In this document: piece after piece, positions 3,564 through 51,931 of the stretch
How positions within the stretch are numbered: the first letter of the stretch is position 1
Layout of the letters: every line of letters begins with the position of its first letter
Virus record (IMG/VR): IMGVR_UViG_3300021962_000046
Location: 1-64,000 of that record
Direction: 5' to 3' (one strand)
DNA length: 64,000 bases
Source of the DNA: a virus
Program-made: the position numbers and the translations under genes
Notes under the pieces: generated by a model
What the model saw: the letters and a program-made list of their open reading frames with translations, nothing else
Told to the model about the DNA's origin: nothing
Databases searched by the model: none

Positions 3564-4190
3564 ATGAGCGAAGTATCAACAAATAAAAAGTTTAACTTAG
3601 TACAATGGTATGCAAGTGGAGGTCTGCTTTTATGGAGCGGAAGTCCAGGATATGGGATATTACAAGATGGCACAACATATGCGTCTGGAAGACTGGAAAG
3701 AATTCAATGGTTTACCTCTAACGGTCAATCAAGAATATGGGCCTCTGGAGCAACAATCGCATTTTTCCAGAATTTTTCAGGTTACTTAGGTTATACATTT
3801 ACGATCAACACAAACAATATAACTTCTTCTGGTTTTCCTTTATACAACACAAATCTACCTGTTTTAGATGCACAACAGGTAAATGCACGAATAGACATAT
3901 TGCAATTCCAAGGCCCAACAACAAATATTCCACAAAATTTTAACGGAAAGGTTATAAAAGCTTGGAAGGCATCAAACAATGGAAACTCATTGCAGACATA
4001 TACATCTGGTGCTGCTCTTAATTTTTTTAATACATTCCAATCTGGAACAACTTATTTAATAGAAAGTGCATCGGGTAGTTTTCCTTACGCTTTTTATAAT
4101 TTAACACCTAATCAAAATTTACCAATACAGCAACCTGATGCTGCTTATGTAAATCAATCGTACACATATCAACTTTCATCAGAGGGATAA
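3564..4190 (+). CDS. Putative anchor/adaptor protein, paralogous to the N-terminus of 1298..3562; ends in the first strands of a He_PIG-type Ig domain
   Basis: Aligns by eye with the 1298 ORF (NKKF..., GT.YASG, IWASG, NFF.T..SGT.Y.I). C-terminus is PDAAYVNQSYTYQLSSEG. Confidence 0.7.
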   Translation: MSEVSTNKKFNLVQWYASGGLLLWSGSPGYGILQDGTTYASGRLERIQWFTSNGQSRIWASGATIAFFQNFSGYLGYTFTINTNNITSSGFPLYNTNLPVLDAQQVNARIDILQFQGPTTNIPQNFNGKVIKAWKASNNGNSLQTYTSGAALNFFNTFQSGTTYLIESASGSFPYAFYNLTPNQNLPIQQPDAAYVNQSYTYQLSSEG

Positions 4191-48707: not shown

Positions 48708-49268
48708 TTATCCCCCATAAACCAAGTAATCGTGATCGGACAAACTAACTTGTCCACTTCTGACAGGTTTTTCTCTTGTTATCTTTTTACCAAGATTCCT
48801 CTGAGCATTCCAGATGATTTGTTTACAATATGTAAAAAATTTAGTGTCAAATATCAAACTCTTCGTTTTTTGGGGCAATTCATCTGGATTTAAATATATT
48901 AAACAAATCTTGCCCAACAAGTCTTCTTGATAATCACCAAACTTCTGCCTGTTTGCTCCATGTCGGGTTCTGTTGTGCCATAAATTTTGCAGTTCATCTA
49001 TTATCATTCTCACAACATGATTGATTTTTTTGTTTCTTAACTTCTCAAAACAAGAGTCTATGTAAACCTGCCTCTTGTAATAAGAGCCTGCACGAATAAC
49101 AGATACCATCAATTCCTGATTGAAATCATCCAGATCGAATTGATGATTGTTTGCCGAGTTCTTTCGGTTCAACTGCCAAGATGCGTAATAACACAATTGA
49201 CCAAACTTCTTATCCAACAAATTGTACTCATCTGCGTTTATTGGAAAATTCTTGTATATAGAACTCAA
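48708..49268 (-). CDS. Sigma-factor region-2-like protein (possible gp55-like late sigma)
   Basis: DLDDFNQELMVSVIRA and KFFTYCKQIIWNA resemble sigma regions 2.2-2.4; no region 4; 186 aa. Confidence 0.55.
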   Translation of the reverse strand: MSSIYKNFPINADEYNLLDKKFGQLCYYASWQLNRKNSANNHQFDLDDFNQELMVSVIRAGSYYKRQVYIDSCFEKLRNKKINHVVRMIIDELQNLWHNRTRHGANRQKFGDYQEDLLGKICLIYLNPDELPQKTKSLIFDTKFFTYCKQIIWNAQRNLGKKITREKPVRSGQVSLSDHDYLVYGG

Positions 49269-50581
49269 TTTTTCGCCTTTCTCTTTAGTTTCTGCATTTT
49301 GTCCAAACTTTTACCAGCCATAACCGATACGGAAAGTTTTAACTCAGGTATCAATTCTGTTTGTTTTTCCAAAATACTTCTGGCAGCCATATATGCGTCT
49401 TGCATATCTTTTTGCCTGACTGCCAGACAATAACCATCATGAACGCTGTAAACAATCTGATACAAATTGCTACTCTGCTTGTATAATTTTACCAAAGATT
49501 CCAAACAAATCAAAGCAGCAGGTGATTGAATTGCAAAATTCCTTGCCTTATAAGATTCTTTTGAATCAAAAAATCTTTTTCTACCAAATTTGTCTTTTAC
49601 AAATTCATTCTTGGATGCCAAATCTTGATGCCCCTCAACATAGTCAAAACTTTTACTAAAAGTTTTTCTTACTATATCAAAATAGATTTGTGCTTGATCG
49701 AATGATATTTCTAGATTTCTGGCAAGACCGGCTGCTGTTTGTCCATATATAATCGGCAAAAATGTTTTTTTTGCTATATCTTTTGCATTTTCGCTGGCTA
49801 CATTAAACACCTTTTGAAAAATAATCTCATAAACAGAATCAGAATTATTATTGATTATATCTTGCAACACCTCATCCTCTGCAAGACAGGCAAGAACACC
49901 TACTTCCATGCTTCGATAATCAAATTGAAAAAAGATATGATCTTGATTTAACAATCTAAAATTCGACTTGTAATCACCCAAAGAATGCGGGTTGTAACAA
50001 CGCTTCATCTCACAACTACATGACAACCTGCCGTTTTCTTGACCCTCAATGTGATAGTTCGGATAAACCAATTGACCTATATTATCATCTATCAAACAAT
50101 AACTCTCTATAGCTGGAATAACTTCGCAAATAATCGGCTGAAAAACCTTCTTGTAAATGCTTATCAACACCTTGTTGGTAACCCATTCCTTAAAATGCCT
50201 TTCTTGCCTTGAAATTTCGCTTATAGACGATTCTTTTGCCAAATATGACTCGTACCACAATAAATCAAAAACATTCTTTAAAACGATGTTTTTGCCAGTC
50301 AGGCGGGTAAAGAGGGTGAATATCTGTTTCCAGTCATGTCCAATCAGAGGAATGTTCTTCTTGGATACAAAAGCTTCAAATAATTTAAGGAATAAAAACA
50401 CATTTTCGGAATGAAGATTCATTTGAACCATTTTGCCAGAAATGGTTTCTATCTTGAATTTGACGAATATCTTGGATTTGCTGGTAGAATCTATTTTCTC
50501 TGGATTCCAAGAACAAAAAATGTAACTCTCTGATTTCAATAATTCATCCAAGGATCTGCTCAAATCTTCAAGGTTGGCCAT
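49265..50581 (-). CDS. Minimal family A DNA polymerase lacking thumb, with degenerate exonuclease domain
   Basis: NGRLS, motif A DYRSME, motif B KDIAKKTFLPIIYG, FGRKR, NFAIQS, motif C VHDG. Confidence 0.88.
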   Translation of the reverse strand: MANLEDLSRSLDELLKSESYIFCSWNPEKIDSTSKSKIFVKFKIETISGKMVQMNLHSENVFLFLKLFEAFVSKKNIPLIGHDWKQIFTLFTRLTGKNIVLKNVFDLLWYESYLAKESSISEISRQERHFKEWVTNKVLISIYKKVFQPIICEVIPAIESYCLIDDNIGQLVYPNYHIEGQENGRLSCSCEMKRCYNPHSLGDYKSNFRLLNQDHIFFQFDYRSMEVGVLACLAEDEVLQDIINNNSDSVYEIIFQKVFNVASENAKDIAKKTFLPIIYGQTAAGLARNLEISFDQAQIYFDIVRKTFSKSFDYVEGHQDLASKNEFVKDKFGRKRFFDSKESYKARNFAIQSPAALICLESLVKLYKQSSNLYQIVYSVHDGYCLAVRQKDMQDAYMAARSILEKQTELIPELKLSVSVMAGKSLDKMQKLKRKAKN

Positions 50582-50687
50582 CAGAAGTTCACCTCAGTTC
50601 TGTTTCCACTTAACCTAACATAGAAGCCCCAAAAAACACAAATAAGTACTGGAAATAATAATCTACAAAATTTATCTTTTATATGTC

Positions 50688-51180
50688 CATACCGGGGGGC
50701 GGGTCTAAGGTGGTGAAGAAAAAAAATATAATAATGACTTTTTATCATTATTATGGGTTTTTTTTCGATACCACTCTAGATTTGAGATCAGTATTGCTAG
50801 TGATGTGCATCATTTGATGATATCCTTAGCTTTACTGAATTGTGTGTTTGGGTAACACACAGTTAACTTGTCGGTTTGAGAATCCTAACCGTACATCATG
50901 TCTCAACTTGAAAAGTTTAATTTTCAATTTGAGAACAGCCCGCCTTAATTTGGCTGATGTAGGCTCACCTAGTCTCATGCCGGTTCATTAGGTTCCCGTA
51001 TTACCTAATGGGTCTAGCAGGGTGTACCGCCCCAGCAAGGTTTATATTGCTCAAATCTCACGAATTGAACTCAGTAACTTTTCAGGCCGACAATTCGCCT
51101 TACTAGGTTACAAACAAAATAATAACAATTATAAAAATAAAAATCAAACTAATTGGCGAAAAGTCATAACTACCTGTATG
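50688..51180 (+). ncRNA. Putative large structured non-coding RNA (family not recognised)
   Basis: At least 10 stems found by eye, several long-range; wobble pairs read as G-U on the + strand; no credible ORF. Ends are approximate. Confidence 0.65.
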
Positions 51181-51220
51181 ATTTCTTTTGAGAAACATAA
51201 ACTCAAAGGAAGTAAACTAA

Positions 51221-51931
51221 ATGGAAATATTCATGAAATATGAACCAGAAATAGCGATCAATTTGAATATGACCGAAGAAGAAAGCATGGCTTACTACCT
51301 GCTCTGTTTCTACATCAATAAAACCAGAGAACTTATTCCAAATTATCGCCATCCAAGAATCACAACAAAAATAGAAAAACTTAAAACTAGCCTCGCATTT
51401 AAACACATGATGAAATTTGTTCGTGAAAAAAGAAAAAAATTCAAAGATCCAAAGTATTTGGAAATTTACATACTTGCACAAATAGTCATTATGAAAAAAC
51501 AACACGAAATGGGAAACAACGCATTAGTTGATTTTCAAATGCTACATGGTGAAGGGGCAAACAGAAGGTGGGAAATCTGGAAGAAGATGTACAGAGATAA
51601 AAATATGGTTAGTGATATTAACTATACATTCACAAAAACAAATATAGAGAATGAATTTAACAAAACCATAAATACACTCAATAAAATACTAGGTGATGAT
51701 AAAAGTTTAGAAAATTATGTTACTCATGCAAACGAAATACTAACAAACATAATTATAAAAAGAATAAGTCATATGTATGTCTACTTTTCAAAGTGGATTA
51801 AGAAACTTCCAGAAGAAATACGAGGCGAGATAAAAGACATAATCAACACAGATGCCTTGAAAACTTTTGACTTATCAGCTGTAAAAAAATGCTATGAGAA
51901 AAATTTTGAATATGAAATTAATATGTCATGA
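51221..51931 (+). CDS. Basic helical protein, possibly a distant gp59-like helicase loader
   Basis: 236 aa, SD AAGGA; the function rests on a loose pattern resemblance only. Confidence 0.55.
   Translation: MEIFMKYEPEIAINLNMTEEESMAYYLLCFYINKTRELIPNYRHPRITTKIEKLKTSLAFKHMMKFVREKRKKFKDPKYLEIYILAQIVIMKKQHEMGNNALVDFQMLHGEGANRRWEIWKKMYRDKNMVSDINYTFTKTNIENEFNKTINTLNKILGDDKSLENYVTHANEILTNIIIKRISHMYVYFSKWIKKLPEEIRGEIKDIINTDALKTFDLSAVKKCYEKNFEYEINMS

Follow-up and report, generated by a model that had tools for sequence, protein, structure and literature searches.

On the minus strand, positions 51112-50688 most likely form the gene for a large, pseudoknotted non-coding RNA of an undescribed family, and we put the probability of this reading at about 0.8. 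The window, a stretch of 64,000 nt with a GC content of about 34%, comes from a 106.6-kb IMG/VR viral contig whose completeness is 21% according to CheckV; the contig is thus a piece of a large phage. The RNA gene occupies most of an ORF-free gap beside a compact family A DNA polymerase (PolA). What is new here is the RNA family, and the two pseudoknots of the RNA are supported by covariation. The original prediction had placed a new multi-domain, pseudoknotted RNA in the replication core at 50688-51180, and the covariation, the two pseudoknots and the lack of an Rfam family bear it out. The gap and its surroundings contain the following features.

50582-51220: gap of 639 nt without a credible ORF
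50688-51112, minus strand: predicted ncRNA gene of about 425 nt, supported by blocks conserved in 16-18 homologues, a folding z-score of -8.92 and a constrained fold
49265-50581, minus strand: compact PolA of 438 aa (Pfam DNA_pol_A, 1e-28), 3' of the RNA and on the same strand
Past PolA, on the downstream side: a 186-aa protein (p186), a DnaB-like helicase and a dCMP deaminase
51221-51931, plus strand: p236, an unannotated protein of 236 aa, divergent, on the other flank of the gap
Beyond p236: SF2 and Dda-like helicases
51119-51124, minus strand: predicted -10 box TATTAT of the RNA promoter (alignment A4)
51142-51147, minus strand: predicted -35 box TTGATT of the RNA promoter (promoter scan)
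51153-51182, plus strand: promoter-like site for the divergent p236 gene (promoter scan), back to back with the RNA promoter and outside the RNA

With PolA, p186, the DnaB-like helicase, the dCMP deaminase and the SF2 and Dda-like helicases around the gap, the locus is a replication module. PolA is the sole DNA polymerase detected on the contig, which is itself a fragment. In its AF2 model (pLDDT 93) the protein matches the Klenow fragment with a TMq of 0.81, and it has 438 residues compared with about 600 in the Klenow fragment, being shorter by about 140 residues. It has no close relative, and the top matches are 52% identical. The model of p236 is confident and all-helical (pLDDT 89.7), with a fold that is not recognisable; p236 has no match among Pfam families and PDB sequences, a Foldseek search of the model against the PDB returns nothing, and the protein atlas is uninformative. 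A resemblance of p236 to phage helicase loaders stays below significance (BFVD E 0.065, TM 0.34-0.37; Z 4.4 for SPP1 G39P). Across the clade, p236 (divergent), the RNA, PolA, p186 and the DnaB-like helicase follow one another in this order.

The element is exceptionally structured and non-coding, as had been predicted. Against dinucleotide shuffles, the folding z-score of 50688-51180 is -8.27 on the plus strand and -6.91 on the minus strand. For the minus strand of 50688-51112 the z-score is -8.92, compared with +0.74 for a PolA coding control of equal length. The minimum free energy (MFE) of 50688-51180 is -157.9 kcal/mol on the plus strand and -146.9 kcal/mol on the minus strand. A protein-coding reading was rejected, because stop-free stretches are short in every homologue (75 aa or less in all, and 29 aa or less in locus L009). 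No known family was recognised either, again in line with the prediction. Rfam 15 (4227 models) gives no match in the window at the gathering threshold. At E values up to 10 it gives just sub-threshold miRNA-like matches on one hairpin (P2) in the window, and nothing for the element in 11 homologous loci. ARAGORN finds no tRNA and no tmRNA on either strand of the 64 kb, blastn of the gap against GenBank phages returns no match, and no iterons or meaningful direct repeats were found at the element. We found no earlier description of such an RNA in the literature.

A single-sequence PolA search of viral contigs gave nothing, and an alignment query was needed to reach the homologues. The alignment of 40 PolA homologues (A1) retrieved 80 loci of viral and 80 of metagenomic origin, most of them from lakes, and nearly all of these have an ORF-free gap of 400-1000 nt upstream of PolA. 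Iterated nhmmer recovers the gap sequence in about 20 loci with PolA 43-52% identical; parts of the gap are 76-78% identical in DNA, above the expectation from protein identity. Covariance model R1 and its iterations R2 and R3, which cover a 114-position core only (the pairings PK1, PK2 and P1 were tested apart), add further members down to about 30% PolA identity. The element is thereby found upstream of short PolA genes in about 60 distinct phage loci with PolA 30-52% identical, and in all homologues found the RNA lies directly upstream of PolA on the PolA-sense strand. Two MAG contigs outside the model building also carry it, with 86 and 38 bits. In a motif scan of viral contigs, true copies occur solely beside PolA, and the model confirmed none of six extra matches. 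The RNA model has no match in four whole phage genomes of 380-595 kb with a related PolA; either the family is not universal in those phages or it has diverged past detection. The carriers are freshwater phages, partly huge, whose genomes reach at least 381 kb, and the RNA grows from about 425 nt in the window to about 650 nt in relatives. In the alignment, invariant blocks alternate with hairpins of wholly different sequence and length, a combination that is the signature of a structured RNA.

The 5' end of the RNA is placed by the predicted promoter and the 3' end by the last conserved nucleotides, the tail GGUAUG. From 5' to 3' along the RNA, the elements are as follows.

51100-51097 with 51087-51084, minus strand: PI, a 5' hairpin of 4 bp with a conserved 9-nt loop
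51089-51093, minus strand: PK1 5' strand, in the PI loop, pairing with 50868-50872
51049-51070, minus strand: variable hairpin H, different in sequence and length in each homologue and followed by an A-rich junction
50978-51037, minus strand: core three-way junction P5/Pb/PF (models R1-R3, alignments A10 and A6)
51037-51032 with 50983-50978, minus strand: P5, enclosing Pb and PF
51031-51027 with 51020-51016, minus strand: Pb
51010-51004 with 50992-50986, minus strand: PF, with a conserved 11-nt loop
50995-50998, minus strand: PK2 5' strand CGGG, in the conserved PF loop, pairing with 50693-50696
50962-50971, minus strand: near-invariant unpaired block AGGU-R-AGCC after P5, invariant in alignments A4, A5 and A7 and kept in distant homologues
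50939-50944, minus strand: P1 5' strand, pairing with 50698-50703 and closing the 3' domain
50899-50937, minus strand: variable hairpin P4, in the same place in 18/18 homologues with unrelated sequences
50873-50890, minus strand: conserved junction that contains an invariant GGUUA and immediately precedes the PK1 3' strand
50868-50872, minus strand: PK1 3' strand, in the junction of the 3' domain, about 220 nt downstream of the 5' hairpin
50788-50861, minus strand: P3 region, whose hairpin 50861-50841 is shared with homologues
50704-50780, minus strand: long hairpin P2, in the same place in 18/18 homologues
50688-50703, minus strand: 3' end, with the P1 3' strand (50703-50698), the PK2 3' strand (50696-50693) and the conserved tail

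The transcript would start near 51112, from a sigma70-type promoter on the minus strand, and end near 50688. The loop of its 5' hairpin forms PK1 with the junction of the 3' domain. P1 closes this domain, which holds the variable hairpins P4, P3 and P2. The PK2 3' strand begins one nucleotide after P1, and PK2 ties the PF loop to the very end of the tail, so that both ends of the RNA are locked in one fold. The 3' side of P2 contains a conserved U-run (50719-50726) with nearly invariant columns, and the arm 50838-50788 in the P3 region is an insertion specific to the window.

Several of the local stems that the original prediction listed coincide with conserved or covarying features: the long hairpin 50710-50774 is P2, 50838-48/50854-64 is P3, 50901-14/50921-34 is P4 and 51020-24/51028-32 is Pb. 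Two others survive in part. Stem 50982-93/51003-14 corresponds to PF, of which a core of 7 bp is conserved, and the long crossing pairing 50868-82/51079-93 is reduced to its 5-bp core 50868-72/51089-93, the covarying PK1. The larger frame drawn around these stems finds no counterpart in the homologues: the four nested closing stems (50778-86/51050-58 and others), the crossing pairing 50734-42/51159-67 and the terminal stem 50688-92/51176-80 are not conserved. The crossing pairing 50696-702/51027-33 is also unconserved, and it would use bases that the covarying P1 and Pb need. Two further proposals, the helix 50936-40/50952-56 and the small hairpin 50960-63/50968-71, could not be supported, as they overlap P1 or are made up of invariant bases. 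P1 (50939-44/50698-703), P5 and the pseudoknot between the PF loop and the 3' tail were absent from that earlier list.

Covariation beside homologous short PolA genes, proposed as a check on the RNA, is strong. Alignment A7 was made by plain MAFFT from 16 sequences and without reference to structure. Here 86.7% of the cells are paired and 25 of the 37 pairs have changed on both sides. The covariation score is 0.427, compared with 0.173 for shuffles (0/500 reach it), and slid partners give at most 0.136. Individual pairings follow the same trend. PK1 is 98.8% paired in the 16 sequences, with compensatory changes in three of its five pairs (GC 8 / UA 7; UA 8 / AU 6). PI is 100% paired and two of its four pairs covary, while P1 is 94.8% paired in A7 with covariation in four of six pairs; among 37 homologues P1 is built from 10 different complementary sequence pairs. 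PK2 occurs as CGGG/CCCG, UGGG/CCCA, CGAG/CUCG, ACGA/UCGU and CAAG/CUUG. In the core alignment A10 (39 sequences), 90.9% of the cells are paired, 17 of 18 pairs covary and none of 500 shuffles matches the score. A10, like A6, is fitted to the structure of the model, and a fit-free search for P1 and PK2 was therefore added. It takes 6 nt of the P1 5' strand and 4 nt of the PF loop and looks for their side-by-side complements within 650 nt downstream. Scoring is Watson-Crick-only, a G-U-tolerant version having been dropped as too permissive. A perfect 10/10 site is present in 24 of the 37 homologues, where 0.03 are expected from shuffles, and a site of at least 9/10 in 33 of the 37, where 0.52 are expected. 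These sites comprise 18 different sequence combinations. P1 and PK2 are thus supported as far as comparative analysis permits. RNAalifold on the raw MAFFT alignments finds three helices only, because the variable hairpins misalign.

The RNA is predicted to be read from the minus strand, co-oriented with PolA, and not from the plus strand divergent from PolA as had originally been suggested. A sigma70-type promoter is predicted just upstream of the RNA. Positions T1, A2 and T6 of its -10 box are invariant in 16 homologues, and most homologues have TTGnnn 15-18 nt upstream of the -10. The -10 and -35 boxes lie in 51113-51180, together with the p236 promoter-like site, so this segment holds promoters and the right boundary moves from 51180 to about 51112. 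Wobble pairs point to the same strand. The original prediction saw G-U wobbles consistently on the plus strand, but the conserved helices do not bear this out: in the minus-strand reading, those of A7 contain 40 G-U compared with 13 A-C, in an alignment made without structure, and the nine best-aligned sequences contain 17 G-U compared with 2 A-C. At the base of Pb, 27 of 38 sequences share a G-U pair that on the plus strand would be a conserved C-A mismatch; the other sequences have G-C or A-U there. The conserved promoter, the G-U excess in A7 and the Pb-base pair together indicate that the RNA runs in the PolA direction. The whole-element MFE and the G-U counts in the variable hairpins leave the strand undecided.

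Three readings that would place the element outside a new minus-strand RNA family can be weighed on this evidence. An RNA on the plus strand, divergent from PolA and upstream of the 51221 gene, draws on the slightly better plus-strand folding of the window, where P2 and P3 fold better on plus and their region is richer in plus-strand G-U. However, the homologues favour the minus strand by 5.5 kcal/mol of folding energy on average, no conserved plus-strand promoter is found left of 50688 while the -10 and -35 are conserved on the minus strand, and the 40 to 13 ratio in the conserved helices favours minus; we regard the plus-strand RNA as highly implausible. Nearly as improbable is an element that acts at the level of DNA, as single-stranded hairpins or cruciforms at an origin (the alternative offered in the original prediction) or as a packaging site. 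Both strands do fold far beyond shuffles, and the variable hairpins have no strand bias, as such an element would have it. The wobble pairs of the conserved helices are strand-asymmetric, though, and a conserved promoter sits exactly at the 5' edge. P1 and the two pseudoknots covary over distances of 140-340 nt, invariant unpaired blocks of the kind typical of RNA tertiary folds are present, and the iterons of an origin are missing. It is likewise barely credible that one of the known large RNA families (RNase P RNA, tmRNA, group I intron or GOLLD/ROOL) has a far-diverged member here, despite a length of 400-650 nt, pseudoknots and a phage setting where such RNAs occur. The RNase P models (at E up to 10), the Intron_gpI model and the GOLLD and ROOL covariance models match neither the window nor the 11 homologous loci, and ARAGORN reports no tmRNA. 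The helix order fits none of these families, and the motifs that we take to define them are absent; for RNase P, with its P4 pseudoknot, those of the conserved regions CR-I and CR-V are missing from the RNA consensus. A tmRNA would join its two ends in a tRNA-like domain and carry a tag reading frame, whereas the ends of the RNA described here are not paired to one another. The element is intergenic with its own predicted promoter and not inserted within a gene, which speaks against a group I intron.

A closer question is whether the RNA is a gene of its own or the beginning of the PolA message. The RNA is probably its own transcription unit rather than a leader; its promoter, its two ends and its independence of the PolA mRNA are all predictions. 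Four distant loci (L012, L014, L029 and L058) have a -10-like hexamer that ends 6-7 nt ahead of the PolA ATG and is accompanied by a suitable -35; protein alignment confirms the start codons. This layout appears to be that of a leaderless PolA mRNA with its own promoter, and a read-through transcript would lack an AUG at its 5' end. Between RNA and PolA, the Group B loci have TTGnnn-17-TAGAAT and then a Shine-Dalgarno (SD) sequence, and several close relatives have a U-run immediately after PK2. The PolA -10 in the four loci, the Group B promoter with its SD and the U-run all favour a gene of its own for the RNA. In the AT-rich spacer of about 100 nt, however, the window and its nearest relatives have promoter-like matches no better than those in shuffles, and no intrinsic terminator was found between RNA and PolA in the window, so read-through into PolA is possible there. 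For this reason we retain, as unlikely yet carrying appreciable weight, the reading that the element is a long, structured leader at the 5' end of the PolA operon mRNA that regulates the polymerase in cis by sensing a protein, a ligand or an RNA. The position of the RNA, directly upstream of PolA and on its strand in every locus, is as expected of a leader, and the nearest relatives have SD-like (AGGUGA) and anti-SD-like (CCUCCUU) blocks. In distant members, however, the SD-like block is not SD-like and reads AAGUAAGCC. The spacer of about 90-110 nt is unconserved, no conserved pairing with the PolA start region is seen, and P1 and PK2 close the 3' end of the fold well ahead of the PolA start. 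Together with the leaderless layout in the four loci and the Group B promoter, these features argue for a separate gene.

Because the RNA lies directly upstream of the compact PolA across a broad phage group, it probably belongs to the DNA-replication toolkit. The single argument for a replication role is this strict PolA linkage, which may merely reflect a conserved order of the module. A folded, probably protein-bound and trans-acting RNA would work within the replication module of PolA, p186, the DnaB-like helicase and p236. From this context we tentatively suggest that the RNA serves the polymerase or replisome as a cofactor or scaffold, or that it is an origin-specific primer; taken together these roles are possible but fall short of an even chance, and the remaining probability goes to functions not nameable from sequence. 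The most specific version, in which the RNA is a true replicase subunit that binds the compact PolA and/or p186 or p236, or is the dedicated primer or template of PolA, is doubtful. Such a subunit would supply a function that PolA lacks, for example holding the primer-template or tethering the polymerase at the origin. If this were true, the complex would be a ribonucleoprotein family A DNA polymerase. More generally, an RNA that works with the replisome would make this the first phage DNA-replication machine with a structured RNA component, and it might explain how a PolA about 140 residues below Klenow serves as a replicase.

An origin primer in the manner of ColE1 RNA II or the T4/T7 origin transcripts, with a persistent hybrid near the 3' end that PolA extends, is a rather improbable role for the RNA. 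ColE1 RNA II is a folded pre-primer of about 550 nt that forms a persistent RNA-DNA hybrid at the origin, is processed by RNase H and is extended by a family A polymerase. The RNA described here resembles it and the T4/T7 transcripts in being non-coding, in having a predicted sigma70-type promoter and in lying in or beside replication genes, here a family A polymerase and a DnaB-like helicase within a replication module. The AT-rich surroundings and the fold matches of p236 to phage helicase loaders also fit a primer, though the latter are sub-significant. The differences are considerable. The element has no iterons, no sign of an RNA-DNA hybrid or an origin is seen here, and the cumulative GC skew has its minimum near 54-55 kb, at a distance of about 4 kb. 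Rather than being free, the C-rich 3' tail is locked in P1 and PK2. Invariant loops and two pseudoknots kept to 30% PolA identity exceed the known needs of a primer; to our knowledge, deep conservation of tertiary pairings together with invariant loops is not a feature of the ColE1 and T4/T7 primers.

Large RNAs with a conserved tertiary architecture are rare, and those whose function has been solved have usually proved to be ribozymes, RNP cores or sophisticated sensors. The RNA of phi29, pRNA, has about 170 nt, is encoded at the genome end and acts as part of a DNA-handling machine, the packaging motor. It is likewise a phage structural RNA whose structure rather than sequence is conserved among relatives; it has no sequence or structure similarity to the RNA described here. 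The latter is recognisable even at about 30% PolA identity and heads a replication operon beside an unusually compact PolA. Whatever its role, it represents a well-defined new RNA family, for which a covariance model is now available for virome annotation. In size (400-800 nt), multiple pseudoknots, phage origin and discovery by comparative metagenomics it is similar to GOLLD and ROOL, large ornate RNAs from phages and prophages that have been studied by cryo-EM (PMC12286853). GOLLD likewise comes from lakes, and GOLLD and ROOL are also without an established biochemical function. However, the RNA fails their covariance models, has another helix order and a strict PolA linkage, and does not lie beside tRNA genes, of which the 64 kb contain none.

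Another similar arrangement is observed in retron msr-msd and in the defence reverse transcriptases DRT2 and DRT9, where a structured ncRNA precedes, in the same orientation, the gene of the polymerase that makes use of it (PMC11974808, PMC13174585). In the phage, the polymerase belongs to family A and is Klenow-like (Pfam DNA_pol_A, TMq 0.81) rather than a reverse transcriptase, the setting is a phage replication operon rather than a defence island, and no cDNA product is known. In every RNA-carrying locus the ncRNA is immediately upstream of the polymerase gene and co-oriented with it. The ncRNAs of DRT9 type contain a U-rich template (PMC11974808, PMC13174585), and the RNA here has its conserved U-run in P2.

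The predicted structured RNA lies upstream of the compact family A DNA polymerase PolA (window 49265-50581, minus strand), on the same strand. Compared with the Klenow fragment, PolA has about 140 fewer residues, yet its AF2 model superposes on Klenow with a TMq of 0.81. Motif C is an invariant VHDG in the PolA clade, compared with HDE in Pol I. In the RNA, a run of eight U residues is nearly invariant among homologues and is always preceded by an inner hairpin, resembling an internal terminator. The conserved strands of the long-range helix P1 and of the pseudoknot PK2 are located beyond it.

50719-50726, within the RNA, run of eight U on the 3' side of the long hairpin P2
51153-51182, plus strand, promoter-like site of p236
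51221-51931, plus strand, p236, divergent neighbour of the RNA

Homologues of p236 are present at about 100 PolA loci, always upstream of PolA and on the opposite strand. The protein has no match among Pfam and PDB sequences. AF2 confidently models it as an all-alpha fold that has no clear structural relative; the only hits are weak ones, to phage helicase loaders. Between the RNA and p236 (51112-51220), promoter-like sites for the RNA (minus) and p236 (plus) are arranged back-to-back, with only 5 nt separating their -35 boxes.

In four distant relatives, a -10-like hexamer is found near the PolA start, together with a suitable -35. The ATG is only 6-7 nt past the hexamer, which suggests that the PolA mRNA is leaderless in these loci.

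L012, about 3840-3875, -10-like hexamer and PolA ATG
L014, about 3950-3990, same region
L029, about 3915-3953, same region
L058, about 3920-3960, same region

Two other loci show group I intron model matches below the gathering threshold of 50 bits. The matches are located downstream of PolA, and the replication genes run on the other strand.

L088, 3594-3780, minus strand, 35.5 bits
L085, 3510-3696, minus strand, 34.1 bits

Among GenBank phages, only the uncultured LR756511.1 (595 kb) carries this PolA type, at 28.9% identity. The covariance model iteration R2 detected no RNA copy in this phage or in three 380-530 kb relatives (the IMG/VR contigs behind L023, L071 and L016); the later iteration R3 detected one upstream of PolA in L016. 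Both PolA and the RNA are carried by CAYVOK010000001.1 (L173, 271 kb) and RXKI01000130.1 (L174), which are probably phage contigs. They are binned in two MAGs, one Acidimicrobiaceae and one Neisseriaceae, and this binning may point to their hosts.
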